Below are positions 3,796 to 18,694 of a stretch of 42,596 nucleotides of DNA, piece by piece; position 1 is the first letter of the stretch; every line of letters starts with the position of its first letter. Source of the DNA: Chloroflexota bacterium. Its GTDB lineage: Bacteria; Chloroflexota; Dehalococcoidia; SM23-28-2; RBG-16-64-32. The position numbers were made by a program, and so were the translations under genes. The stretch lies in NCBI GenBank assembly GCA_005880075.1, contig VBJT01000001.1:4379-46974 (forward strand). The letters run 5' to 3'. The notes beneath the pieces are model-generated. The model made no database searches. It was given only the letters and a program-made list of their open reading frames with translations, and was not told where the DNA came from.

Positions 3796-5124
3796 CTAGC
3801 GTGTAAGGCGTCGCCTGATCACCATGACAGCGCCGGCCACAGTCAGTAAGGCACCGGCAATCAGCGTCCCTCCAATGGGCCAGCCGAGGTCAGCCCCGTC
3901 GCCGGGCTCGCCGCCCGTTTCCGGAACTGCGGCCGGTTGCGGAGCGGTCGTGGGCGCCGCCGTCGCTCCCGTGGTGGGGGTGGCGGTCGCCTGCACCGCC
4001 GCTGGCTGGTGGGGCGGCGCGAAGTAGGGGAAGGTGCTGAGGAACGCCACGTCGTTGCCGCTAATCGCGTCCGTAATACCGGCGGTGCGGTTCAAGACGA
4101 GCTTGAGGGCAGTATCGATCACGTCGTCCGTTAACTGGCGACCGTTGGTGAACTGGACCGGCTGCGAGAAGTCGATGCGAACGATATCCGGCTGAACGAT
4201 ATCGGCGACTTCGGCCGGGGTCTTTTGCCCGAACGGCCCGCCGTCTTCAGGACCGACTGGTCCATCCAGAACGGCGTTGACAGCCGTCCTCAGGTTCTGG
4301 TCCTCGGTCTGAACCGTGCTCTGAAAAGTCGCGGCGTCTGTCGCTGGCGCGCCGGCATTGAAGGCGTCCTTTTGTGCAGTCGGAATCAGCGCAGTATTTA
4401 GGGCGGGGATGGCCATGCGGTCCACTTGCGCTCCCTGTGACGTCGAGGCCCAGGCTTGAATAACGCCGGTGTTCGGGTCGGCTATGGCGCTGATCGGGAA
4501 TTCAATCACGATATACGAGACGTTGGTGCCCTTGAAGGTGTCCGAGGGCTGGTCGGGAGACTTGCAGAGTCCCGAAGTCGGGACATAGGGTGCAGCCTTG
4601 AACTTCTTGAAGCACGTCAGGTCGAAGAAGAAGGCGTCGTCGCGCTGACCGGCGAAGCTCTTTATACCGCCCTGGTCTTTGATCTTTGGGGCCGGCGCCG
4701 TCGGGTCCACTGATGGTGGCGTCACGTCGCCGGTGATCGCACCGCCGGGCAACCCCGTGATCGTATACGTTTGCGTCGCTCCACTGCCGGCGAAATTGAT
4801 GTTAACGGTAGCATCATCAACGAGATCGCTGTTTAGATCGACATGGATCATGTAAGTCACGGCGTTGCTGAAATTGGCGCTCAGGTTGTCCGCTGGCGCC
4901 GTGAGGCCATTCACGCCAAGACCCAAGACTAGGTTGGCTGAGTTCGCAGGGCTACGGAATGCGTAGACATCTGTAATGTCCGCTGGCTTATTTGCCTCAG
5001 CGCCGGGCGCGTCCCGGTGATCGGCGCCGCTCGACGGGCGGCCTGGACCACCGGTAGCGAGGAGAACGACCGCCGCCACGAGAACACACAGGCTGGCAAA
5101 GCCGCTTAGTACAAACTTCCGCAT
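3796..5124 (-). CDS. DUF4331 family surface protein with a C-terminal LPXTG-like sorting signal
   Basis: N-terminal signal peptide. DHRDAPGAEANKPADITDVYAF matches the DUF4331 N-terminal signature. The C-terminus has VPETGG, a hydrophobic helix and an RRRLTR tail. A GGAGG SD lies 11 nt upstream of the ATG. Confidence 0.75.
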   Translation of the reverse strand: MRKFVLSGFASLCVLVAAVVLLATGGPGRPSSGADHRDAPGAEANKPADITDVYAFRSPANSANLVLGLGVNGLTAPADNLSANFSNAVTYMIHVDLNSDLVDDATVNINFAGSGATQTYTITGLPGGAITGDVTPPSVDPTAPAPKIKDQGGIKSFAGQRDDAFFFDLTCFKKFKAAPYVPTSGLCKSPDQPSDTFKGTNVSYIVIEFPISAIADPNTGVIQAWASTSQGAQVDRMAIPALNTALIPTAQKDAFNAGAPATDAATFQSTVQTEDQNLRTAVNAVLDGPVGPEDGGPFGQKTPAEVADIVQPDIVRIDFSQPVQFTNGRQLTDDVIDTALKLVLNRTAGITDAISGNDVAFLSTFPYFAPPHQPAAVQATATPTTGATAAPTTAPQPAAVPETGGEPGDGADLGWPIGGTLIAGALLTVAGAVMVIRRRLTR

Positions 5125-5668: not shown

Positions 5669-7167
5669 AGCTTCAACGACACGCTCTTCGTCTCCATGAA
5701 CATCTCCATCCCCTCCTGCCCCAGCTCGCGCCCGATGCCGCTCTGCTTGTAGCCGCCGAACGGCATCAGCGGCACGCCGAGCGTCCCCGCCGCGTGGTAG
5801 CTGTTGATCCAGACAGTGCCCGCCTTGATCCCCTTCGCGAACTTGAACGCCCTGTCGATGTCCTTCGTCCACACCGCCGCCGCCAGCCCGTACATCGTAT
5901 CGTTCGCCAGCCGCAGCCCCTCATCCGCATCCTTGAACGGGATCACCGAGAGCACCGGCCCGAAGATCTCCTCCTGCGCGATCTTCATCCGGTTGTCCAC
6001 CTGGTCGAAGATCGTCGGTTCGTAGAAATAGCCCTTATCGTAGCCTTCGCCCGTCAGGCGCTTGCCGCCGCGCACGAGCGTCGCCTTCTCATCGTTCCCC
6101 GATTTCACGTACGACTCCACGGTCCCCAGCTGTGAATCCGAGACGACGGGGCCCATTCGCGTAGACGGGTCCATCGGGTCGCCCACCTTCACGCCGTTCA
6201 CGAAGTTGCTGAACATGTTCAGGAACTGATCGTGCACGCTCTCCTCCACCAGCAACCGCGAGCCCGCCTGGCACACCTGCCCGGCGTTCATGTAGATGCC
6301 GAACAGCGCGCCGATCACCGCTCCCTGCAGGTTGGCGTCCGCGAACACAATGTTCGGCGACTTCCCGCCCAGCTCCAGCGAGATCTTCTTCACGTTGCTC
6401 GCTGCCGCCCGCATCACCTGCTGCCCGACCTCGGTCGAGCCCGTAAACGCCACTTTGTCCACCAGCGGAGAAGCGGCTATCCGGTCGCCCACGGTCTTGC
6501 CGGACCCCGTCACGACGTTCACGACCCCCGCCGGCGCGCCCGCCTCAGTCAAGATGCGGCCCAGCTCGTACGTCGTGCACGGCGTGTACGTTGCCGGCTT
6601 GATCACGCAGGTGCAACCAACCGCCAACGCCGGAGCAAGCTTCCACGTCGCTAGCAGCATCGGAAAGTTCCACGGCGTGATGATCCCGACAACGCCCACC
6701 GGCTCCTTGAGAATCATACCGATCGCATCGCTGACGTAGTTCGATACCACTTGACCCTTGATGTCGAGCGCCAACCCGGCGTAGTACTCGAACACATCAG
6801 CCGTAAGCGACACCTCGATTCCTGCCTCGCTCAGCGGCTTACCGACTTCCGAGGCTAGCAGCCTTGCGAGGTCGTTCTGCTCGGCGCGGATCTTGTCGGC
6901 CGCTCGCCTCAGGACTGCCGAGCGGTTCCGCGCCGGCGCGTTCGACCAGCCACCGCTGTCAAACGCCTTCCGCGCCGCTTCGATCGCGGCGTCGACGTCC
7001 TCTTCGCTCGCCTTCGGGAACTTCGCGACCGTTACGTCGTTGTTCGCCGGATAGCGCCGCTCCATCATCTCGCCGGATTTAGGAGCAACTTGCTGGCCGT
7101 TGATCAGCAGCTGGTACTCCTTGCCGGTGACAGCCTGCGGGGCGGCAGGCGCAGTCTCGGTGGTCAT
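5662..7167 (-). CDS. NAD(P)-dependent aldehyde dehydrogenase
   Basis: Motifs FTGSTEVG, ELGGKSP, catalytic Cys context NAGQVCQAGSR, and EEIFGPV. The start is set at the ATG at 7167, preceded by AAGGAGGAG with a 6-nt spacer. The track ORF begins 6 codons earlier at a GTG. Confidence 0.9.
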   Translation of the reverse strand: MTTETAPAAPQAVTGKEYQLLINGQQVAPKSGEMMERRYPANNDVTVAKFPKASEEDVDAAIEAARKAFDSGGWSNAPARNRSAVLRRAADKIRAEQNDLARLLASEVGKPLSEAGIEVSLTADVFEYYAGLALDIKGQVVSNYVSDAIGMILKEPVGVVGIITPWNFPMLLATWKLAPALAVGCTCVIKPATYTPCTTYELGRILTEAGAPAGVVNVVTGSGKTVGDRIAASPLVDKVAFTGSTEVGQQVMRAAASNVKKISLELGGKSPNIVFADANLQGAVIGALFGIYMNAGQVCQAGSRLLVEESVHDQFLNMFSNFVNGVKVGDPMDPSTRMGPVVSDSQLGTVESYVKSGNDEKATLVRGGKRLTGEGYDKGYFYEPTIFDQVDNRMKIAQEEIFGPVLSVIPFKDADEGLRLANDTMYGLAAAVWTKDIDRAFKFAKGIKAGTVWINSYHAAGTLGVPLMPFGGYKQSGIGRELGQEGMEMFMETKSVSLKLN

Positions 7168-7274
7168 GGGGCGCTCCTCCTTCACATCGTCTGCGTGCTT
7201 ACGACTATATTACCCTCGAATGGAGGAAAGAGGCGGCCTGTCGGCCGCCTCCGCTCACGTCTTATGATTACCTT

Positions 7275-9008
7275 CTAACCGGTGGCTCTCATCGCGAACA
7301 TTTCCTCGCGCCATGGAGTTCTTTCCTTCGCCTGCCTGATGATTTCCGCCGAGACATCGAACTTCATCATGCCGCCGGGCCCAACGCCCTCTTCGCGAAG
7401 ACACGTGGGGAGATCATCGTCCGCTTCGGTCAGGCCGGCCCGGTCGTTGAACGCCCATTCGTCTTGCAGGCACTGCCAACCCACCTCCGCCATATCCTCG
7501 GGCTTCACAGGCTCGCCGTACAGCAGGCTGTAGAACTCCGCGATGTCCTTCAGGCTGGGCTGCAGGAACTGACAGAAGCCGGAAGAATCGCAGACCGCGT
7601 TCACAAGCTGTGACTCGCGCGATGCCTGCGCGAACTGGTCTTCCGGCATGCCGGGTTTGATCACGAGTCCGGCGGTGTGGTCGGCGCCCATCGGGCTGCT
7701 TGCGTAAGTCACGCCGGTCGCCTTCAGCGGGCGTGGGTCCCAGGCGGGCACCGCCTGGCCTTTAACAACCGGCACGCGGGCGTGGTTGAAGCGCTTGCCG
7801 ACGCTGGCCGCGCCGTTACCCACCGTCTTCCCGAGGTCCGTCCCGTTCCCAACGTCCGCGAGCAGCTTCTTCATTGCCTCGGCGTCACCCCACTCCAGCT
7901 GTCCGGCGTCCATCAGCACGGCGATCGCTGCACCGGCCTCTATCGTATCCACCCCGATCTCATCGCATAGCCGGTCGAGGTCAGCCACTTTCTCCCAGCT
8001 GTCGACGCCGCAGTTCGAGCCGAGCAGGGCCAGTGTCTCGAACTCGAGCGCCGATGTCAGGTAATTCCCGTCCTCCCCGTGCACGACGTTGCTGCACTGG
8101 ACGATGCAGCCGGTCATGCAGTTGTGCATGCCGCCGCCGCGGACCTCGAAGCTCTCGACGATCTTCATCCCCGCCAGGTTGGCCGCGTCAGGCGACTGCC
8201 CCTCCGTCCGGTTCTTGTAGGGGAGCGTGTTGAGCAGGTTCGCCGTCGGAAGGATCGCGGACGTCCCGTACTTGAAGATCTGCGGTCCGTCCCGGTAGGC
8301 CTTACTGTAGTTCTTGACGAGCGCATTGAAGCCCGGCGTGTCCGCGGGCTGGCGTGGACGCGCCCGCGCCGGGTCGACGAGCACCCATTTGAGTCCCTTC
8401 GAGCCCATGACTGCCCCGAGCCCACCGCGAGCAGCCGCGCGGGCTGGATGGCGTTGCTTTTCCTGATCGGTGCAATGGATCGATGCCCCCCGGAGCTGGA
8501 GTTCGCCGGCGGGGCCGATGCAGATCGCAGACGCACTGGCGGGTTGGTCCGCGAAGAGCTTCTCGCAGGCGGCGTAGTTCCACATTCCCTTGTAATCGTC
8601 CGCGGACACTACTCTGGCGCCTTGATCGTCGACTATCACGCCATAACGGCGTTCCGGGTCGGCTGGCTCACCCTTCACTACGACCGCCCGGATGTTCAGC
8701 TTCATCAGGTGCTGACCGGGATTTCCGCCGGCGTTCGCCTCCTTGATGCCGTTGGTCAGCGGGCTCTTGCCTCCCATCGAGATGCGTCCCGAAGTCGGGG
8801 CAGACGTGCCCGAAAGCACGCCGGGCGCCATTACGAGAACATTGTCGGGGCCCAGAGGGTCGCATTCCGGATCGCACTCTTCGAGCATAATCCGGGCGGA
8901 CAAGGCGCGGCCGCCGAGAAGCTTCCAGTCGGCCGGGAATGGATCGAACGAGGTCGTTTGCGTTGTCATGTCCACGCGCAGGATCCGGTCGCCGTTGGAT
9001 TCAGGCAT
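7275..9008 (-). CDS. Aldehyde:ferredoxin oxidoreductase (AOR) family tungsto/molybdopterin enzyme
   Basis: AOR N-domain motif MGGKSPLT, Fe-S cysteine cluster NCMTGCIVQC, and C-terminal DSSGFCQF motif. The length is close to typical AORs. The ATG at 9008 follows GGAGG with a 7-nt spacer. Confidence 0.85.
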   Translation of the reverse strand: MPESNGDRILRVDMTTQTTSFDPFPADWKLLGGRALSARIMLEECDPECDPLGPDNVLVMAPGVLSGTSAPTSGRISMGGKSPLTNGIKEANAGGNPGQHLMKLNIRAVVVKGEPADPERRYGVIVDDQGARVVSADDYKGMWNYAACEKLFADQPASASAICIGPAGELQLRGASIHCTDQEKQRHPARAAARGGLGAVMGSKGLKWVLVDPARARPRQPADTPGFNALVKNYSKAYRDGPQIFKYGTSAILPTANLLNTLPYKNRTEGQSPDAANLAGMKIVESFEVRGGGMHNCMTGCIVQCSNVVHGEDGNYLTSALEFETLALLGSNCGVDSWEKVADLDRLCDEIGVDTIEAGAAIAVLMDAGQLEWGDAEAMKKLLADVGNGTDLGKTVGNGAASVGKRFNHARVPVVKGQAVPAWDPRPLKATGVTYASSPMGADHTAGLVIKPGMPEDQFAQASRESQLVNAVCDSSGFCQFLQPSLKDIAEFYSLLYGEPVKPEDMAEVGWQCLQDEWAFNDRAGLTEADDDLPTCLREEGVGPGGMMKFDVSAEIIRQAKERTPWREEMFAMRATG

Positions 9009-9060
9009 CAAAGCACCTCCAGATAGTGACTCGCATTATGCCAACCGCCTAGCCTACGGG

Positions 9061-9426
9061 TCAACGCGACCAAACGAGCCGCCCATGAGCGTCCCGGCCT
9101 GAAACGTATCCCGCCCGCAACATTGCGGCGACGGCCTCCATCTGGTGGATCCGATCAAGCAGGTCACAGAGCGACTGGCCGGGCGACTGGTTAACGATCC
9201 GCGTCGCCTCGAGCCATGTATCGACCGGCAGGCCGCACTCAGCAGCTTTCTTCTGATTCCACGGCAGGCTGTACCGCCTCATGGCTTTCACGATCTGCGC
9301 GATCGATACGCCCGATTCCGCCAATAGACCCTGCGCACGCAACTCGCGCTGGTACGCCGTAAGCGGTGCGTTAGCGACAGCGTCGAGCTGCGAGAGTAGT
9401 TCGGACAGGGCGTCCTCGTTGAGCAT
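9061..9426 (-). CDS. Hypothetical 121-aa protein, co-transcribed with ppdK
   Basis: The ATG lies 11 nt after the ppdK stop and is preceded by GAGGGAGA. I do not recognise any family. Confidence 0.5.
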   Translation of the reverse strand: MLNEDALSELLSQLDAVANAPLTAYQRELRAQGLLAESGVSIAQIVKAMRRYSLPWNQKKAAECGLPVDTWLEATRIVNQSPGQSLCDLLDRIHQMEAVAAMLRAGYVSGRDAHGRLVWSR

Positions 9427-9437
9427 TCTCCCTCTCG

Positions 9438-12167
9438 CTAGACGTCGCGCTTTCCCGTCGTCGCGTCGGCCAGCGCCGCCTGCGCCGCCGCCAGCCGCGC
9501 TGTCTCCACGCGAAAGGGCGAGCAGGAGACGTAGTCAAGGCCGATCTCGTGGCAGAAGGCGACAGACGCCGGGTCACCGCCGTGCTCCCCGCAGATGCCT
9601 AAGTGCAGATCCTTATTGGCCGCGCGGCCTTCCTCGGTCGCCATCCTCATCAGGCGCCCGACGCCGGGCCTGTCGATAGTGACGAACGGGTTGGCCGGTA
9701 GCAGTCTGCGCTGCTCGTACATGCTCAGGAACTTGCCGATATCATCTCTCGAAAAGCCAAAGCCCATCTGGGTAAGATCGTTGGTCCCGAAGGAAAAGAA
9801 CTCAGCGACCTCCGCGATCTCCCGCGCCGTCACCGCCGCCCGCGGTACCTCTATCATGGTGCCCCACTCGAGGTGCGAAAGCTCCACCTCTTCGCGGCTC
9901 AGCACTTCGCCTGCCACCGGCTCGAGCTCCTCGCGCATCTGCCGGAGCTCTTCGCGTGTGGCCACCAGCGGAATCATGATCTCGACCCTGGCGTCGCAGC
10001 CCTCTTTTTGGACCAGGCAGGCGGCCTCAAGGATCGCCCGCACCTGCATGGCGTAGAGGCCCGACTTCACAATTCCGAGGCGCACGCCGCGAAGGCCGAG
10101 CATCGGATTGACTTCGTGGAGCTCCCGTACCTTTCCAAGGACACGCTCCTGGTCTGCTACGTTCTCGCCCCGCTCCTTCGCCAGCGCGACTTCGACCGCA
10201 AGCGAGGTAAGATCGGGCAGGAACTCGTGCAACGGCGGGTCGAGGAGTCGGACGGTAACCGGCAGGCCGTCCATCGCACGGAAGATCCCCACGAAATCGT
10301 CGCGCTGCAGTGGCAGGAGCTGCGCGTATGCCTCCTCCTCTTCTTCACGCGTCGAGGCGAAAATCATCTGGCGTACGGCCGCGACGCGTTCCTCGCCCAG
10401 AAACATGTGCTCGGTGCGGCAAAGCCCAATGCCCTCAGCCCCACGCTCGCGCGCATTTTGCGCCTGCTCCGGCGTGTCGGCATTGGCCCGGACACGGAGC
10501 CGCCGGGCGCCGTCGGCGTGACCCATGAACCGCGCGAACGCCTTCCAGATCTTCTCCTTGCGCGCGTTTTCATCTCCTCTGCGAGCGCGCTCGAGCTTGG
10601 ACGCTTCGAGCTCCAACTTTCCGACATAGACCGCACCATCAAAACCATCGATCGTCACGAACTCTCCGCCGGCAACAGTAGTCCCGTTGGCGCTGAACGA
10701 CCTCGACGTGAGATCGATCTTGATTCCGTCGGCGCCACACACCGCAGGAATCCCTTCTCCTCTGGCGACGACGGCCGCGTGGGAGTTCGTGCCGCCCGCT
10801 GAGGTAAGAATCCCTTGCGAGCGAATCATGCCGTAATAATCGTCCGGCGTGGTCTCCCGCCGCACCAGGATGACAGGCTCCCCGCGCTGCCCCTGCTCCT
10901 CTGCCTCATCAGCTGAGAACACTACCTTCCCAACCGCCGCGCCAGGCGACGCGTTCAGCCCCTTGGCGATCGAGCGAGCGGTTGCCTTAACGTCGGCCTT
11001 GATGACCGGCTTGAACAGCTGCTCCAGCCGGTTCGCATCCACCCGCAATAGCGCCTCGTCTTCACTGATCAGCCGCTCTTCCAGCATGTCGTATGCCATC
11101 ACCCACTCGGCAAACGCCGTGCGCTTCCCGACGCGGGTCTGAAGGATCCATAGCTTGCCCTTCTCGATCGTAAACTCGATGTCGCACATATCGCGGTAAT
11201 GCCGCTCCAGCGTGTCCATGGCTTTGCGGAGCTCGCCGTACGACTTCGGGTCGAGATTCTCAAGCTCATGTAGCCTGAGTGTGTTGCGGATCCCGGCGAC
11301 CACATCCTCGCCCTGGGCATTCGGCAGGTAATCGCCGTAAGGAACCCTTTCGCCGGTCGCCGGGTCTCGGGTGAAGGCGACACCTGTCCCCGAGTCCATC
11401 CCGCGGTTACCGAAAACCATTGCCACTACATTGACCGCGGTGCCCAAGTCGTCCGAGATCTTATTCTGCCGACGATAGTCGCGTGCCCGCTTGCCGTTCC
11501 AGGACTTGAAGACCGCCTCGATGGCTAGGCGCAGCTGATCGCGTGGTTTCTGCGGGAACTCCTCCCCGACATGTTCGCGATAGATCGCTCGGAAGTCCCC
11601 AAGGAGCGCGTCAAGGTCGCTGGCGTCGAGATCGGTATCCTCCGCATCCTCGCCCATTCGCTTCTTGTATTCGTCCAACTTGCTCTCGAACCTCTCGCTG
11701 GGGACCTCCATCACAATCTTGCTGAACATCTGGACGAAGCGACGGTAGGAATCGAGAGCGAAGCGCATGTCGTCGCCCGATTGCCTGGCCAGCCCCCGCA
11801 CTGATTCGTCGTTGAGCCCCAGGTTCAGCACCGTGTCCATCATGCCCGGCATGGAGAACTTGGCCCCGGAGCGGACCGAGACGAGGAGGGGATCATCAGG
11901 GTCACCGAGCCGCTTGCCCATGTCTGACTCAAGGTCCCGCAAGTGGTCTTCGACTTCCTCTTCGAGGCCTTCAGGCCACCTGCCCGAAGCTAGATAAGCC
12001 ATACAAGCCTCGGTGGTCACAGTAAAACCTGGAGGCACACGGAGCCCCATGTTAGTCATTTCCGCGAGATTCGCGCCTTTGCCGCCCAGCAACTCTCGCA
12101 TCTGCGCGTTGCCCTCGGTGAAGCGGTAGATGTACTTGGGGCCGGCCTTCGGGTCAACAGTGACCAT
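9438..12167 (-). CDS. ppdK: Pyruvate, phosphate dikinase
   Basis: GGKGANLAEM ATP-grasp motif, phospho-histidine motif GGTNSHAAVVARG, and C-terminal LGICGEHGGDP. 909 aa. AAGGAG SD upstream of the ATG. Confidence 0.95.
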   Translation of the reverse strand: MVTVDPKAGPKYIYRFTEGNAQMRELLGGKGANLAEMTNMGLRVPPGFTVTTEACMAYLASGRWPEGLEEEVEDHLRDLESDMGKRLGDPDDPLLVSVRSGAKFSMPGMMDTVLNLGLNDESVRGLARQSGDDMRFALDSYRRFVQMFSKIVMEVPSERFESKLDEYKKRMGEDAEDTDLDASDLDALLGDFRAIYREHVGEEFPQKPRDQLRLAIEAVFKSWNGKRARDYRRQNKISDDLGTAVNVVAMVFGNRGMDSGTGVAFTRDPATGERVPYGDYLPNAQGEDVVAGIRNTLRLHELENLDPKSYGELRKAMDTLERHYRDMCDIEFTIEKGKLWILQTRVGKRTAFAEWVMAYDMLEERLISEDEALLRVDANRLEQLFKPVIKADVKATARSIAKGLNASPGAAVGKVVFSADEAEEQGQRGEPVILVRRETTPDDYYGMIRSQGILTSAGGTNSHAAVVARGEGIPAVCGADGIKIDLTSRSFSANGTTVAGGEFVTIDGFDGAVYVGKLELEASKLERARRGDENARKEKIWKAFARFMGHADGARRLRVRANADTPEQAQNARERGAEGIGLCRTEHMFLGEERVAAVRQMIFASTREEEEEAYAQLLPLQRDDFVGIFRAMDGLPVTVRLLDPPLHEFLPDLTSLAVEVALAKERGENVADQERVLGKVRELHEVNPMLGLRGVRLGIVKSGLYAMQVRAILEAACLVQKEGCDARVEIMIPLVATREELRQMREELEPVAGEVLSREEVELSHLEWGTMIEVPRAAVTAREIAEVAEFFSFGTNDLTQMGFGFSRDDIGKFLSMYEQRRLLPANPFVTIDRPGVGRLMRMATEEGRAANKDLHLGICGEHGGDPASVAFCHEIGLDYVSCSPFRVETARLAAAQAALADATTGKRDV

Positions 12168-14030: not shown

Positions 14031-15419
14031 TCAAGGTACCGTCGCGACAACCGCCGACACTTGTGCCGTCGCCTCGACCTCCTCTCGATGCGTAACGTAA
14101 TACAGGAAGCCGACGGCGACGCCGACCAGGCAGGCACCGGCCAGCAGTCCGATGGTCACCCGTACACCCAACACTTCGGCCATGAACCCCGTCAGCGATG
14201 CTCCGATAGGCGTGGACCCGGCAATAAGCAGCATATACAGCGCCATGACTCTGCCACGCAGGTGATCGGGCGTCGCCAGTTGCAGCGACGTGTTTGAAGT
14301 TGCCGCAAAGATGATGTTCGCCACTCCAGTGAGAAAGAGGAACAGCATCGACAGGTAAAATGACTCGCTAAGGGCAACCGCCCCGAGCAGCAGTGCGAAC
14401 AACGCGCCGCCCACAAACAGCTGGGAACGCGTCGCCCGCCGCTGGCCCGCGATCACCAGGGCCGATAGAAAGGCCCCCAGTCCGAGCGCAGCGGTCAGGA
14501 ATCCTAGGTCAACCGAATCGCCCTGCAGCACGTACCGGGCGACGAGAGGCAGCACCGTTATGAAGTTGTAGCCGAAGGTGCCCAGGAATGAAGCGATGAT
14601 AATGATCATCAGCGCCGCCGGCGTGCGTCGTACAAACTAGAGGCCCTCCCGCAGCTCTCTGAGCGGATTGGCTCGCGCGACTGGCCGATCGTTTACCTTG
14701 AGTTCGCTCAAATCCATCATGGTAAGCGCCAGGATGCTTGGTATGAAGCTGACCGCATTAATCGCGAACGCTGCTTCGGTCCCGGCCACCGCGATCATCA
14801 CGCCCGCGACCGAAGGACCAACAAGCCGCGCCCCGTTGAAGAGCCCGGAATTCAGCGCCACGGCGTTGATCAGGTCGTCCTTCCCCACCATCTCCACGAT
14901 CATCGCTTGCCGTGTCGGCTGCTCAAAAGCGTTGGACACCCCAAGCATGAGCGCCAGTAGGTAAACATGCCACAGCTGGACGCTGCCGGCCGCTACCAGG
15001 ACTGCCAGAAGTAACGCCTGGACCATCGCCAGGGCGCGCGTGGCGAGGATGAGGTCCCTCTTATTGACGCGGTCCGCAATCACTCCCGCCGGTAGCACGA
15101 AGATCGTGATCGGCAGGAACTGGAGTGTCGTGACAATCCCCAGCGCCGCCTTCGAATCCGTCAGCTCGATGACGAGCCACGATTGGGCCACCGTCTGCAT
15201 CCACGTCCCTGTCAGCGAAATCGCTTGCCCGGTATAGAACAGCCGGTAATTGCGGTGCCGCAGCGCCCGAAACGTCTCGCTCAACCGCGTCGTACGGGCA
15301 ACCTCGATCGAGGGCGCAGCTGGCTCCCCGATTTCGGGTGCCGCCAGCTCTGCGGTGGGATCAACTTCGGCGTGCTGCCGGAGCAACCGCAAGCGGCGGG
15401 CACGCCACGGACGCGTCAT
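14031..15419 (-). pseudogene. MFS transporter (EntS/MFS_3-like) interrupted by one in-frame TAG
   Basis: The two track ORFs (14637-15419 and 14031-14609) are in the same frame. Reading through the TAG at 14637-14639 gives ...LRELREGL*FVRRTPAALMIIIIASFLG..., a continuous MFS sequence. Confidence 0.7.
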
Positions 15420-15475: not shown

Positions 15476-17260
15476 CTAAGGCGGTGCGAGTAGCATGAAG
15501 GCTGCACAGACGCGGTCGGTCGGGTCAACAAAGAGGTCCACCTCCCGGGCGAGCCTCCATTCGCCGTTTTGCTCGAACACCAGTAGGCGCTTCTCATCGA
15601 TCAACGCGGCTCGCCGGGCGTCGGCCTCCTGCGCCGCCCACAGCAACACTCCAAGCTCCCTGTTCGGCCCCTCACGACGCGTGTCGTCCCAGTCACCGCG
15701 GTTGATCCGGTCGAGGAACGTATCTAGGTCGACCGCGAAGCGCCGCCACTTGTGCTTCGCTTCGATGTGGAATACTTGCACGCCGCGAGCGGATAGCACG
15801 TAGTCGCGCTTGGTCTGCGCGGAAGGCAAGTCCCACAAACTCGCCATGTGCTGCGAAACCGGCAGCCATACTTGCGTGTTCGTGGAGTCAAGCCGCCAGC
15901 CGAGCGCTGTCAGGCAGAACTCCACTAGCCGGTTCTGTACATCCTCTTTGTTGATGAAGACGGCCCGGGAGAGCCGTTCCAGTACGCGCTGGACAGCCTC
16001 CGGCGCGTCATCCCGGCTGCGAGCCTCAGCGCTTGCCCTCGCCAGCCGGCCAACCTTGCTTATCGCCGTTGCTACGTCACCCATATCATCGAGCGTCACC
16101 GTCGGATGGACGAGCAGCGTGAACAGCTCCCCACTAAGCTTCTCGGCGATCGGGCACGGTTGCTTGCCGTACCCCGCATCTCGGAACACCGGTTGCCGGG
16201 TTAGCGGAGTTGGGTACCGGCGAGAGACCGGAATGCCCTCAGCCGCTACGGCGTTCACAAACCAATCGACACCTATTCCGGTCTCAGGCTTCAGCCGGCA
16301 GATGTACTTGTAATAGCTGTGGACACATTCATCGGCTACGAAAGGAGGATCAACCGACACGCTCTCCGCCAGATGCTCCGTCAGGAAGGCTGCATTCCGC
16401 CTGCGCGCCTCGAGATATTCTTCCAGCCTCCCCAGTTGCGCCAACCCGGTCGCCGCCTGCAACGACGACATGCGATAGTTATACCCCAACTCGGCGTGAT
16501 AGTAGCTGCGCTCACCCTCAATCGGCTGTTCCCCGTGATGACGGATGCGCCGCATCCGCTCCGCTAATTCGTCGTCGTTCGTGATCACACAGCCGCCCTC
16601 GCCGCCGCTAGTGATGATCTTGTCCTCCCAGAAGCTGAAGCACCCGGCTCGGCCGATCGTCCCCACTTTCCCGTCCTTGTACAGCGCTCCGTGCGCCTGC
16701 GCGGCATCCTCGATGACCGCGATACCTTGTGGCTTGGCCAACGCAAGGAGCGCGTCGAGATCTGCCGGGTGACCGTTCAGGTGCACCGCGATGATCGCCT
16801 TCGTCCGCTCCGTAATCCGCTCAGCCACGCTGTGAGGCGATATACAGAACGTCCTCGCGTCTACGTCGGCAAACACCGGCCTCGCGCGCTGGTGCAGCAC
16901 CGGCGTGGCCGATGCGATGAATGTGTGCGCCGGCACGATCACTTCATCGCCCGGCCCCACGCCGAGAGCGACGAGCACCGCATGGATGGCGGTCGTACCG
17001 GAACTCGTCGCCGCACAATGGTCGACGCCGTGCCAGCCCGCGAACGCCGCCTCAAAAGCCGCGACGTGGTCGCCCGTCAGCTGCGTGAGTTTGCCGGAGC
17101 GAAGGACTTCAGTGACTGCAGCCACCTCTTCGTCTCCAAGAACCGGCCACGGCGGGTACGGGCGCTCCCGCACCTTGGGCCCGCCGTTGATCGCCAGTTC
17201 TTCGCCGCCCACGCCCGAATTATCGCACGGCAATCGCCTTCCTTCTTTGTTCGCCCTCAA
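15476..17260 (-). CDS. DegT/DnrJ/EryC1/StrS-family PLP aminotransferase fused to a C-terminal PD-(D/E)xK nuclease-like (HsdR-N-like) domain
   Basis: The first 405 aa or so carry AIHAVLVALGVGPGDEVIVPAHTF and the PLP-lysine context EDKIITSGGEGG. The last 185 aa or so carry RLVEFCLTALGW and DYVLSARGVQVFHIEAK, a D...E-x-K core. The annotated start is a TTG, and an internal TTG at 17233 behind AGAAGGAAGG is also possible. Confidence 0.8.
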   Translation of the reverse strand: MRANKEGRRLPCDNSGVGGEELAINGGPKVRERPYPPWPVLGDEEVAAVTEVLRSGKLTQLTGDHVAAFEAAFAGWHGVDHCAATSSGTTAIHAVLVALGVGPGDEVIVPAHTFIASATPVLHQRARPVFADVDARTFCISPHSVAERITERTKAIIAVHLNGHPADLDALLALAKPQGIAVIEDAAQAHGALYKDGKVGTIGRAGCFSFWEDKIITSGGEGGCVITNDDELAERMRRIRHHGEQPIEGERSYYHAELGYNYRMSSLQAATGLAQLGRLEEYLEARRRNAAFLTEHLAESVSVDPPFVADECVHSYYKYICRLKPETGIGVDWFVNAVAAEGIPVSRRYPTPLTRQPVFRDAGYGKQPCPIAEKLSGELFTLLVHPTVTLDDMGDVATAISKVGRLARASAEARSRDDAPEAVQRVLERLSRAVFINKEDVQNRLVEFCLTALGWRLDSTNTQVWLPVSQHMASLWDLPSAQTKRDYVLSARGVQVFHIEAKHKWRRFAVDLDTFLDRINRGDWDDTRREGPNRELGVLLWAAQEADARRAALIDEKRLLVFEQNGEWRLAREVDLFVDPTDRVCAAFMLLAPP

Positions 17261-17263
17261 GAT

Positions 17264-18694
17264 ATGATGCGACCGGTAATGAGCGACGGGCCGGTACGCA
17301 AGGAGAAGGACTCGATGGGGGAAATGGACGTCCCGGCAGACGCCTACTATGGAGCCTCAACTCAGCGCGCCGTCCTCAATTTCCCTATAAGCAGCCTTCG
17401 CCTGGGCCGGCCGTTCATTCGCGCCCTCGGCCTCATCAAACTCGCGGCCGCCCGCGTCAACGCTGACCTTGGCCTGTTAGAACCACGCATCGCCGATGCG
17501 ATTGCGACTGCGGCGAAAGAGGTCGCAGATAGCAAGCTCGACAAGCACTTCGTGGTCGACGTCTTTCAGACCGGGTCCGGCACGTCGACGAACATGAACG
17601 CCAACGAGGTCATCGCGAACCGGGCGAGCGAAATCATGGGCGGTGAGCGCGGCTCCAAGACCATCCATGCAAACGATCACGTCAACCTGGGTCAGTCCTC
17701 GAATGATGTAATCCCGACCGCCATCCACATCTCGGCGCTGCTCGAGATAGAGGAACGCCTCATCCCCGCTCTGCAGCGGCTCCAAATCGCTCTTGAATCG
17801 AAGTCAAAGGAGTTCTGGGATGTCGTTAAGACCGGCCGCACTCACCTTCAAGACGCAACGCCGATCCGTCTCGGCCAGGAGTTCCTCGGTTATGGGGGCC
17901 AGATCGAGCGCGGGATCAAACGCCTCCGTCGCGCCCAAGAAGAGCTATCGGAAGTCGCGCTGGGTGGCACCGCCGTCGGCACTGGCATCAACACGCACCC
18001 GGAGTTCGCTTCGCGCGTCTGCACCGTGCTGGCGCAGGAACTGGGGGTGGCCATTCGTGAGAGCGATAATCACTTTCAGGCGCAGAGCACTCTGGACGCC
18101 GTTCTCGAGGCGAGCGGTTCCCTGCGTACCGTCGGCGTCAGCCTTCAAAAGATCGCGAACGACGTCCGCTGGCTAGGCTCGGGCCCGCGCGCCGGCCTCG
18201 GCGAGTTGGCGCTGCCGGAGGTGCAGCCTGGCAGCTCGATCATGCCCGGCAAAGTCAATCCGGTCATCGCCGAATCGCTGATCCAGGTGAGCGCGCAGGT
18301 GATAGGCTGCGACGCCGCAATCGCTCAGGCAGCGCAGGGCAGCTATTTTGAGCTCAACCTGATGCTGCCAGTGGCGACATACAATCTGCTCGAGGCGATC
18401 GAACTCCTGGCTTCCGCGAGCCAGAACTTCACTGAGCGCTGCGTTGAGGGCCTAGGCGCCACGCCTCGCGGCCCGGAGATAGTCGAGCGCGGACTGATGC
18501 TCGCTACTGGCTTGGTGCCGGCCATTGGCTACGACGCCGCGGCTGACGTCGCCAAGGAAGCGGCGAGGACTGGGCGCACCATCCGCGAGGTCGCGCGCGA
18601 AAAGACAGACTTGTCCGAGGACCAACTCAACCAACTGCTCGACGCCGCGAAAATGACGGCGCCCCGCCTCGACCCGGGACCCCTCTCGGGCTAG
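17264..18694 (+). CDS. fumC: Class II fumarate hydratase
   Basis: KEKDSMGEMDVPADAYYGASTQRA N-terminus, FQTGSGTSTNMNANEV, and the GSSIMPGKVNP signature. The long 5' extension of the track ORF is a shadow of the divergent gene. The start could be the ATG at 17264, 17267 or 17279. Confidence 0.9.
   Translation: MMRPVMSDGPVRKEKDSMGEMDVPADAYYGASTQRAVLNFPISSLRLGRPFIRALGLIKLAAARVNADLGLLEPRIADAIATAAKEVADSKLDKHFVVDVFQTGSGTSTNMNANEVIANRASEIMGGERGSKTIHANDHVNLGQSSNDVIPTAIHISALLEIEERLIPALQRLQIALESKSKEFWDVVKTGRTHLQDATPIRLGQEFLGYGGQIERGIKRLRRAQEELSEVALGGTAVGTGINTHPEFASRVCTVLAQELGVAIRESDNHFQAQSTLDAVLEASGSLRTVGVSLQKIANDVRWLGSGPRAGLGELALPEVQPGSSIMPGKVNPVIAESLIQVSAQVIGCDAAIAQAAQGSYFELNLMLPVATYNLLEAIELLASASQNFTERCVEGLGATPRGPEIVERGLMLATGLVPAIGYDAAADVAKEAARTGRTIREVAREKTDLSEDQLNQLLDAAKMTAPRLDPGPLSG

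Follow-up and report, generated by a model that had tools for sequence, protein, structure and literature searches.

A DegT-type aminotransferase gene of soil Chloroflexota continues in frame into a divergent domain with a predicted PD-(D/E)xK-like fold

The subject of this work is a two-domain gene found in a 42,596-nucleotide stretch of contig VBJT01000001.1 from a Chloroflexota bacterium (assembly GCA_005880075.1, positions 4,379 to 46,974). The whole stretch is called the window here, and positions are counted from its first letter. The gene lies at 15476..17260 on the minus strand and is an uninterrupted open reading frame (ORF) of 594 codons plus stop, in which a DegT aminotransferase is followed by a linker and a predicted PD-(D/E)xK-like tail. 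The initial annotation, made from the letters of the window, had described a single unbroken frame of 594 codons, and the ORF listing agrees (15476..17260, minus strand). Each peptide that it quoted was found in the ORF at the place given, and the span to which it referred, 15476-16033, corresponds to the last ~185 codons plus the stop. Translation starts at the TTG at 17260 or possibly at the GTG at 17212, 16 codons downstream. The latter may be the true start, since most homolog clusters are 578-579 amino acids (aa) long, with calls that use the start equivalent to GTG 17212, and since one homologous locus (L024) has an in-frame stop within the longer N-terminal extension. This ambiguity has no bearing on the fusion.

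Residues 42-400 (16061..17137, minus strand) constitute a DegT/DnrJ/EryC1 aminotransferase domain dependent on pyridoxal 5'-phosphate (PLP; Pfam PF01041). The match (E=9.4e-112, 374.2 bits against a cut-off of 19.8) extends over profile positions 4-359 of 360, and the earlier description of a complete PLP enzyme of this type is borne out by a profile covered almost end to end. The predicted Schiff-base lysine is K214 (codon 16619..16621, minus strand; context FSFWEDKIITSGGEGG), which in the alignment to 8gyh pairs with the lysine of 'fslqatKnIPtcGEGG'. The lysine context quoted in the initial annotation, FWEDKIITSGGEG, is located at 16595-16633. This lysine is kept in every fused homolog read, and presence of the SFxxxK...GEGG context points to the aminotransferase type, not to the His-type dehydratase. 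Nearest solved structures are 8gyh (2e-75), 7b0d, perosamine synthases, QdtB and WbpE. Full-domain matches were obtained to 8gyh, glutamine-scyllo-inositol transaminase (7b0d), GDP-perosamine synthase (3bn1), QdtB (3frk) and WbpE (3nyu). These solved relatives have 359-445 residues, which leaves no room for the ~190-residue C-terminal addition seen in the fusion. None of the NCBIfam equivalogs PseC, LegC, ArnB, WecE and DesI was reached at cut-off (the best, PseC, with 262.2 bits versus 423.5; the others fall short of theirs by still more).

The two domains are connected by an Ala/Arg-rich linker (residues 401-430; 15971..16060, minus strand; SKVGRLARASAEARSRDDAPEAVQRVLERL), delimited by sequence, predicted disorder and poor conservation. 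In an AlphaFold2 (AF2) model that included the linker, its first ~20 residues have a predicted local distance difference test score (pLDDT) of 30-42. In relatives with split genes, DegT stop and tail start both fall inside the linker region. The C-terminal domain, or tail, comprises 164 residues (431-594; 15479..15970, minus strand) and is modelled with a PD-(D/E)xK-like fold (AF2 pLDDT 91). Its HsdR-N-like core, proposed from hhalign, Pfam pieces and sequence, covers residues 433-505 (15746..15964, minus strand; INKEDVQNRLVEFCLTALGWRLDS...TKRDYVLSARGVQVFHIEAKHKW) and consists of helix NKEDVQNRLVEFCLTALGW followed by a motif-bearing beta-hairpin. The putative active-site motif, D486-x13-E500-x-K502 (DYVLSARGVQVFHIEAK; 15755..15805, minus strand), was placed by the family alignment and the AF2 model.

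The two-domain fusion protein of this soil Chloroflexota lineage is genuine. The whole protein occurs in one frame in three species-representative metagenome-assembled genomes (MAGs; loci L008, L009 and L010), which belong to 'Chloroflexi bacterium CF_23', 'CF_22' and an uncultured Dehalococcoidia bacterium (identities 86%, 76% and 72%). A single-frame fusion was likewise detected in metagenome loci L016, L018-L020 and L024. When the 594-aa protein was mapped onto DNA of 20 or more related loci, the DegT-tail junction was read through in frame in L001, L002, L005, L006 and L007. Full-length search retrieved ~15 fused protein clusters of 555-623 aa with 70-87% identity; search with the tail only retrieved nine relatives, all of them metagenomic and with fragmented gene calls, and the mapping traced this fragmentation to frame breaks at various positions away from the junction. 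The ortholog check proposed in the initial annotation thus has a positive outcome: fused orthologs exist, and the fusion is not unique to this assembly.

To estimate selection on both parts, ratios of nonsynonymous to synonymous substitution rates (dN/dS, Nei-Gojobori) were computed for the window, L008, L009, L010 and L016. Pairs with L018 and L024 were excluded, as an upstream in-frame stop shifted their codon map. The ratio amounts to 0.07-0.14 for DegT, 0.04-0.13 for the tail (unsaturated pairs) and 0.17-0.67 for the linker. Since dN/dS of the tail is as low as that of DegT, the tail is under purifying selection as strong as that on the enzyme half.

Frame breaks are present within the DegT-tail gene of four related loci: two in L001 (4999-6771), both inside DegT; one in L002 (1-977); one in L022 (891-2595); and two in L003 (4218-6015), of which one is at the junction. 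These are either assembly indel errors or real pseudogenisation in some populations. One protein, P0045 (455 aa, from a locus syntenic with the window), was considered as a tail-deleted variant and rejected: its tail is complete, and it is the gene call that is truncated N-terminally.

Relationship of the tail to known families was examined by sequence and by structure. The window tail alone gives a sub-threshold match to Pfam HSDR_N on RDYVLSARGVQVFHIEAKHKWR (11.8-12.3 bits, E=0.15-0.22) and no match in NCBIfam or among PDB sequences (phmmer). No PDB match was obtained by hmmsearch with tail alignment A1, and neither the window tail nor its relative P0010 has a PADLOC match at E<=0.01 or a PHROG match at E<=0.1. 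Only the L014 homolog has weak matches (E=0.004-0.007); in PADLOC it weakly matches model positions 31-98 of REase_MTase_IIG. When members were compared with Pfam individually, HSDR_N was the sole recurrent family other than DegT, matched by six of 16 members, always below threshold. The best score, that of P0010, is 19.8 bits (E=7.7e-4) versus a gathering threshold of 25.1. The HSDR_N matches are made of two collinear pieces, namely the first helix (profile positions 2-31) and the D...ExK hairpin (118-156). The top PDB sequence match of a profile built from distant members is HsdR 3h1t, with a non-significant E=1.1.

In a single pre-specified hhalign comparison, tail alignments were set against template A4, which consists of 25 HsdR N-terminal fragments of low diversity. 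Alignment A3 matched it with P=2.9e-5 (probability 74%) and alignment A2 with P=1.2e-4 (55%), over 73-75 columns. In both cases the register places 'RDYVL' on 'RADYLL' and 'IEAK' on 'VEAK'.

The AF2 model of the tail, built from a diverse alignment with the linker excluded, has a pLDDT of 91 and a predicted template modelling score (pTM) of 0.86. Its topology is helix, strand, short helix, beta-hairpin, helices, strand, beta-hairpin, helix. Using this model as Foldseek query against the PDB, chains of the Type IIL enzyme DrdV take ranks 1-4 (E=1.4e-3 to 2e-2, probability 0.98-1.00), with template modelling (TM) scores of 0.46-0.48 over 158-166 columns that span the whole domain, and the Type IIG enzyme BpuSI is at rank 9. 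Among BFVD viral models, 'Type I restriction enzyme R protein, N-terminal domain containing protein' ranks first (E=2.3e-3), ahead of Cas4-like, YqaJ, COG5377 and other PD-(D/E)XK proteins. Every match in both libraries is above E 1e-3 and below TM 0.5. A first AF2 model (10-sequence alignment, linker included, pLDDT 75) was discarded; it retrieved only noise by Foldseek, with HsdR 3h1t at rank 5 (E=0.75).

Four modest tests (Pfam, hhalign, Foldseek against PDB and Foldseek against viral models) converge on the reading given in the initial annotation, i.e. a PD-(D/E)xK domain similar to HsdR-N, and the Pfam and AlphaFold/Foldseek checks that it suggested for the tail yielded sub-threshold HSDR_N in the former case and DrdV and HsdR-N as top structural matches in the latter. 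Together they support a divergent PD-(D/E)xK fold as the predicted structure of the tail, closest to the endonuclease domains of HsdR and of the Type IIG/IIL (MmeI/DrdV) enzymes. Since none of the tests reaches a curated threshold, we prefer to speak of a new family related to PF04313 and do not count the tail among the members of the latter.

The HsdR N-terminal domain (PF04313; Vibrio vulnificus HsdR, 3h1t) has, like the tail, a helix of the form 'E..v...l..P.L...GW' followed by a hairpin with 'R.DYvL' and 'vEAK'. In contrast to HsdR, the protein studied here has no SF2 helicase/translocase module, and the 164-aa tail ends the protein. Residues ~506-594 of the tail are family-specific (three helices, a strand, a beta-hairpin and a helix), and the motif lysine is variable in the fused clade, both unlike HsdR-N. 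Best structural matches to the tail model are DrdV (7lo5), BpuSI (3s1s) and thereby the Type IIG/IIL enzymes of the MmeI family. The endonuclease domain of DrdV is N-terminal (bioRxiv 10.1101/2021.01.06.425610); Foldseek does not report which DrdV residues are aligned, and we infer that the match is to the nuclease domain. Unlike the Type IIG/IIL enzymes, the fusion is devoid of gamma-class methyltransferase and target-recognition domains, and its nuclease-like domain is located C-terminally to DegT.

In the model, D486 is in strand 482-491 and E500-x-K502 ends strand 494-501, both after helix 438-452. Across ~40 family members, no change is seen at R485, D486, Y487, E500, W505 or D555. In the C-terminal half of the tail, W541 and 'RAALID' are invariant. 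Position 502 is occupied by lysine in every split or stand-alone member. Within the fused clade, this lysine is replaced in six of 16 full-length clusters (by Q in five, by E in one), and two further members have L (locus L016) or R (P0006) at this position. As far as sequence can tell, these substitutions argue against universal nuclease activity in the fused clade. The tail is not basic (pI 5.9).

Exhaustive search of 1.84 billion representative proteins with a hidden Markov model of the tail family gave 22 matches; the family is thus very small. It does not extend beyond a few uncultured lineages of Chloroflexota, in which three arrangements occur: tail fused to DegT, tail as a separate ORF right after an orthologous DegT, and tail standing alone. 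In the second arrangement, the DegT stop shares letters with the tail start, the overlap being ATGA in both L004 and L015 but GTGA in L017. In L026 both are parted by one in-frame TAG, 9 nt containing GAGG and then the GTG start of the tail. Gene order in L017 is DegT, tail, GNAT, Gfo/Idh/MocA. In L004 the ORF after the tail, GNAT-like by eye (no domain scan), overlaps the tail stop by 8 nt. Stand-alone tails with no DegT within reach are found in L012, L014 and L025; the contig of L013 is too short to be sure.

To estimate the history of these arrangements, a neighbour-joining (NJ) tree of the family was constructed, without bootstrap. All fused sequences fall into one clade, with L004 and L015 as sister group, and L017 and L026 form deep branches interleaved with stand-alone members. 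Members adjacent to DegT thus occupy three deep branches of the tree. This indicates that fusion took place once, because the fused sequences form one clade, and that association with DegT spans the depth of the family. The tail itself is a lineage-restricted accessory and not a part of the core enzyme, since hundreds of DegT orthologs with 71-80% identity (e.g. L029 and L030) are plain proteins of ~390 aa without any tail.

Several further relatives deserve mention. Locus L014 (contig Ga0114930_10000565, 3-6627) carries a stand-alone tail at 6001-6627 (44% identity), situated directly after the DISARM genes DrmA (E=7.5e-170) and DrmB (E=1.7e-76) and a GmrSD/HEC-06-like type IV restriction enzyme. 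Four ORFs downstream of it (6687-7316, 7461-8636, 8683-9345 and 9831-11384) have no Pfam or PADLOC match. This tail homolog, a single instance, may be an undescribed defence-island accessory.

In P0009 (JGI 3300043331, 952-nt contig) the tail runs in frame beyond its usual C-terminus into SSLETLEFQPLKPDRRRDFETPFG, which matches the start of the GNAT-like downstream ORF of L004, MDKRSSLETLQFHPVTPDRWR; P0009 may represent a second independent fusion, of the tail with the downstream gene, or a frameshift. In L011 (Dehalococcoidia bacterium SM23_28_2), region 4835-4948 was rejected as a gene, being a 38-aa fragment (RRMRRDYVLSCKTGQVPRIEAKYRWGRR) amid stops. It is located upstream of a 411-aa ORF, has 47% identity to the D...ExK region of the tail, and looks like a decayed remnant of the family. 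The 98-aa family fragment P0021 is flanked by 'SFPTRRSSDL' and 'KSTRLNSSH', peptides which we take to be typical of translated sequencing or assembly junk, and the record is presumably chimeric and unsuitable for alignments.

Gene neighbourhood of the fusion is syntenic in relatives and consists of a peptide ABC transporter, a divergent fumarase, DegT-tail, MFS_3, a thiolase-like protein and PPDK. The gap between the fusion gene and the divergent class II fumarase/aspartase gene is very short (window 17200-17320). A 667-aa plus-strand ORF at 16691-18694 over-extends the fumarase, whose likely start is the ATG at ~17312, preceded by AAGGAGAAGG. The MFS_3 transporter gene (14031..15419, minus strand) is 56 nt downstream of the fusion gene and contains one in-frame stop at 14637-14639 ('...LRELREGL*FVRRTPAALMIIII...'), with MFS_3 matched collinearly on both halves. 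The orthologous frame is intact in L008 (482 codons); the stop in the window is either a nonsense mutation, which would make a pseudogene, or a base error. MFS_3 adjoins DegT in L001-L003, L029 and L030, i.e. in fused and unfused relatives alike.

The tail-less loci L029 and L030 are clusters of SDR, DegT, GNAT, MFS_3 and Gfo/Idh/MocA genes, in that order, a typical oxidise-aminate-acetylate set. L030 contains in addition a 165-aa PDDEXK_3 (PF13366) gene between GNAT and the Gfo/Idh/MocA oxidoreductase (10234-10731, plus strand), and L029 an unannotated 175-aa ORF before MFS_3 (9822-10349, plus strand). Both were rejected as diverged tail homologs, with hhalign probability below 1% each. The PDDEXK_3 gene resembles the split tails in being a gene of ~165 aa from the PD-(D/E)xK superfamily in an orthologous DegT cluster; it differs from them in its hhalign probability of 0.2%, its position in the cluster and its unfused state. 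Neither hsdM, hsdS nor other restriction-modification domains were found among the window ORFs scanned, and no nucleotide-sugar synthesis genes are near the fusion gene in the window. DNA-modification, glycosyltransferase and nucleotidyltransferase genes are lacking both in the window and in the related clusters scanned.

What might the tail do? Most likely, in our judgement, it plays an accessory part, as a module for binding or for partnership; it would not be an obligate nuclease, and transamination itself would not depend on it. We hold this reading with confidence and doubt in about equal measure. An accessory role is preferred to that of an obligate nuclease because K502 is replaced in much of the fused clade and because hundreds of orthologs have no tail. 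Action together with DegT is suggested by translational coupling, later fusion and deep co-occurrence. The tail would then be a partner of the DegT enzyme, at first made stoichiometrically with it by translational coupling and later tethered to it covalently. Since DegT enzymes are homodimers, the fusion would present two tails per enzyme. D486 and E500 with R485, Y487 and D555 might be a retained metal- or phosphate-binding pocket, which would fit the invariance of these residues. Such a tail could serve as a ligand-binding or partner module (for a phosphodiester, a nucleotide, nucleic acid or another protein) and thereby modulate or localise the aminotransferase.

Certain observations weigh against this interpretation. 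All fold tests are below the usual or curated thresholds (Pfam 19.8 versus 25.1; TM 0.43-0.48; Foldseek E just above 1e-3), the NJ tree has no bootstrap support, and the association with DegT is counted on few cases, which cluster in the phylogeny. Homologs that stand alone in unrelated surroundings (L014, L025 and L012) show that the family has a role independent of DegT. Moreover, a member without K502 may still be a nuclease, because some restriction enzymes, e.g. BglII, are catalytically active with an ExQ variant of the motif.

These homologs outside the DegT context, one of which adjoins DrmA, DrmB and a GmrSD-like enzyme (L014), raise the question whether the tail is a small nuclease in its own right (defence-related or selfish) that lodged in a DegT operon, became compacted against DegT and was fused by stop loss; it would keep a function of its own on nucleic acids and have no functional link to the aminotransferase. 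Invariance of D486, E500 and D555 and absence of the tail from most DegT orthologs are in line with this, the unrelated PDDEXK_3 gene of the L030 cluster suggests that small genes settle there repeatedly, and in L026, where in-frame ORFs are parted by a single stop, fusion is one mutation away. On the contrary, adjacency to DegT recurs on three deep branches, and the ATGA and GTGA overlaps, together with the 8-nt overlap on the GNAT side of L004, speak for co-translation and not for an independent cassette. K502 is lost in six of 16 fused clusters despite strong purifying selection, so that selection does not seem to be for canonical catalysis, and the fused locus resides in a stable syntenic housekeeping neighbourhood instead of a mobile or defence island, the defence context being a single case. 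An autonomous nuclease is, on balance, rather unlikely, though a serious contender.

The tail could also direct the enzyme to nucleic acid or another phosphodiester, by bringing DegT to a polymer-attached keto-sugar or a nucleotide-linked intermediate, or it could cleave a nucleotide-sugar product. GmrSD-type enzymes target sugar-modified DNA, and one stand-alone tail adjoins such an enzyme. The tail shares its fold with the domains by which restriction enzymes bind and cleave DNA, joint action is implied both by the fusion and by the coupling of split forms, and PMC3424549 treats PD-(D/E)xK more broadly as a phosphodiesterase superfamily, which also counts for this possibility. Nevertheless, the window and the related clusters scanned lack the DNA-modification, glycosyltransferase and nucleotidyltransferase genes, the neighbours GNAT, Gfo/Idh/MocA, SDR and MFS_3 point to small-molecule chemistry of amino sugars or aminocyclitols, the pI of the tail (5.9) is acidic to neutral, close DegT orthologs do without a tail, and no precedent was found in the literature. 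We therefore regard a directed aminotransferase as decidedly improbable. Finally, the initial annotation had left room for an artefact, in which mis-assembly, a missed stop or a frameshift joined two genes. Frame breaks in L001, L002, L003 and L022, the in-frame stop of the window MFS gene and the fact that the two parts are truly separate genes in distant relatives could be cited for it. One frame runs through the junction, however, in the window, in all three MAGs and in numerous contigs and clusters that were assembled independently (metagenome loci and the ~15 clusters with 70-87% identity), which rules this option out as it was put; the frame breaks elsewhere are at differing, mostly non-junction positions, and the fused sequences form one clade. 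An artefact is hence barely credible.

No paper describing a combination of DegT with PD-(D/E)xK was found in the literature, in agreement with the initial annotation, which knew of no described link between such aminotransferases and this nuclease fold. Apparent co-mentions were dismissed: they were due to the author name Degtyarev and, for the pairing of HSDR_N with an aminotransferase, to a survey of PIN domains. Both the domain architecture and the tail family appear to be undescribed, with the two parts coming from well-known superfamilies. The tail represents a previously unmodelled small PD-(D/E)xK family, for which no Pfam, NCBIfam, PADLOC or PHROG model reaches threshold. Its practical impact is limited, as it is present in few uncultured Chloroflexota lineages and most orthologous enzymes are tail-less.

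A bolder and improbable extension is that enzyme and tail form a functional machine of two parts, through which the chemistry of amino sugars or aminocyclitols is linked to a phosphodiester or nucleic-acid target. It might take the form of an aminotransferase directed to sugar-bearing DNA or RNA, or of a nuclease-like sensor or effector under the control of the aminotransferase or of its product. If this were true, adjacency to DegT, coupling, fusion, PDDEXK_3 of L030 and the DISARM/GmrSD neighbours of L014 would all belong to one biology.

Returning to the tail as an accessory partner, the natural series of stand-alone, translationally coupled and fused forms makes the partnership directly testable. 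Should tail and enzyme really act together, we would have here the first case found in which a sugar aminotransferase of the DegT family is physically coupled to a module with restriction-endonuclease fold. It would suggest a new way to regulate or localise amino-sugar biosynthesis, or an unexpected link of this pathway to nucleic acids or phosphodiester substrates.

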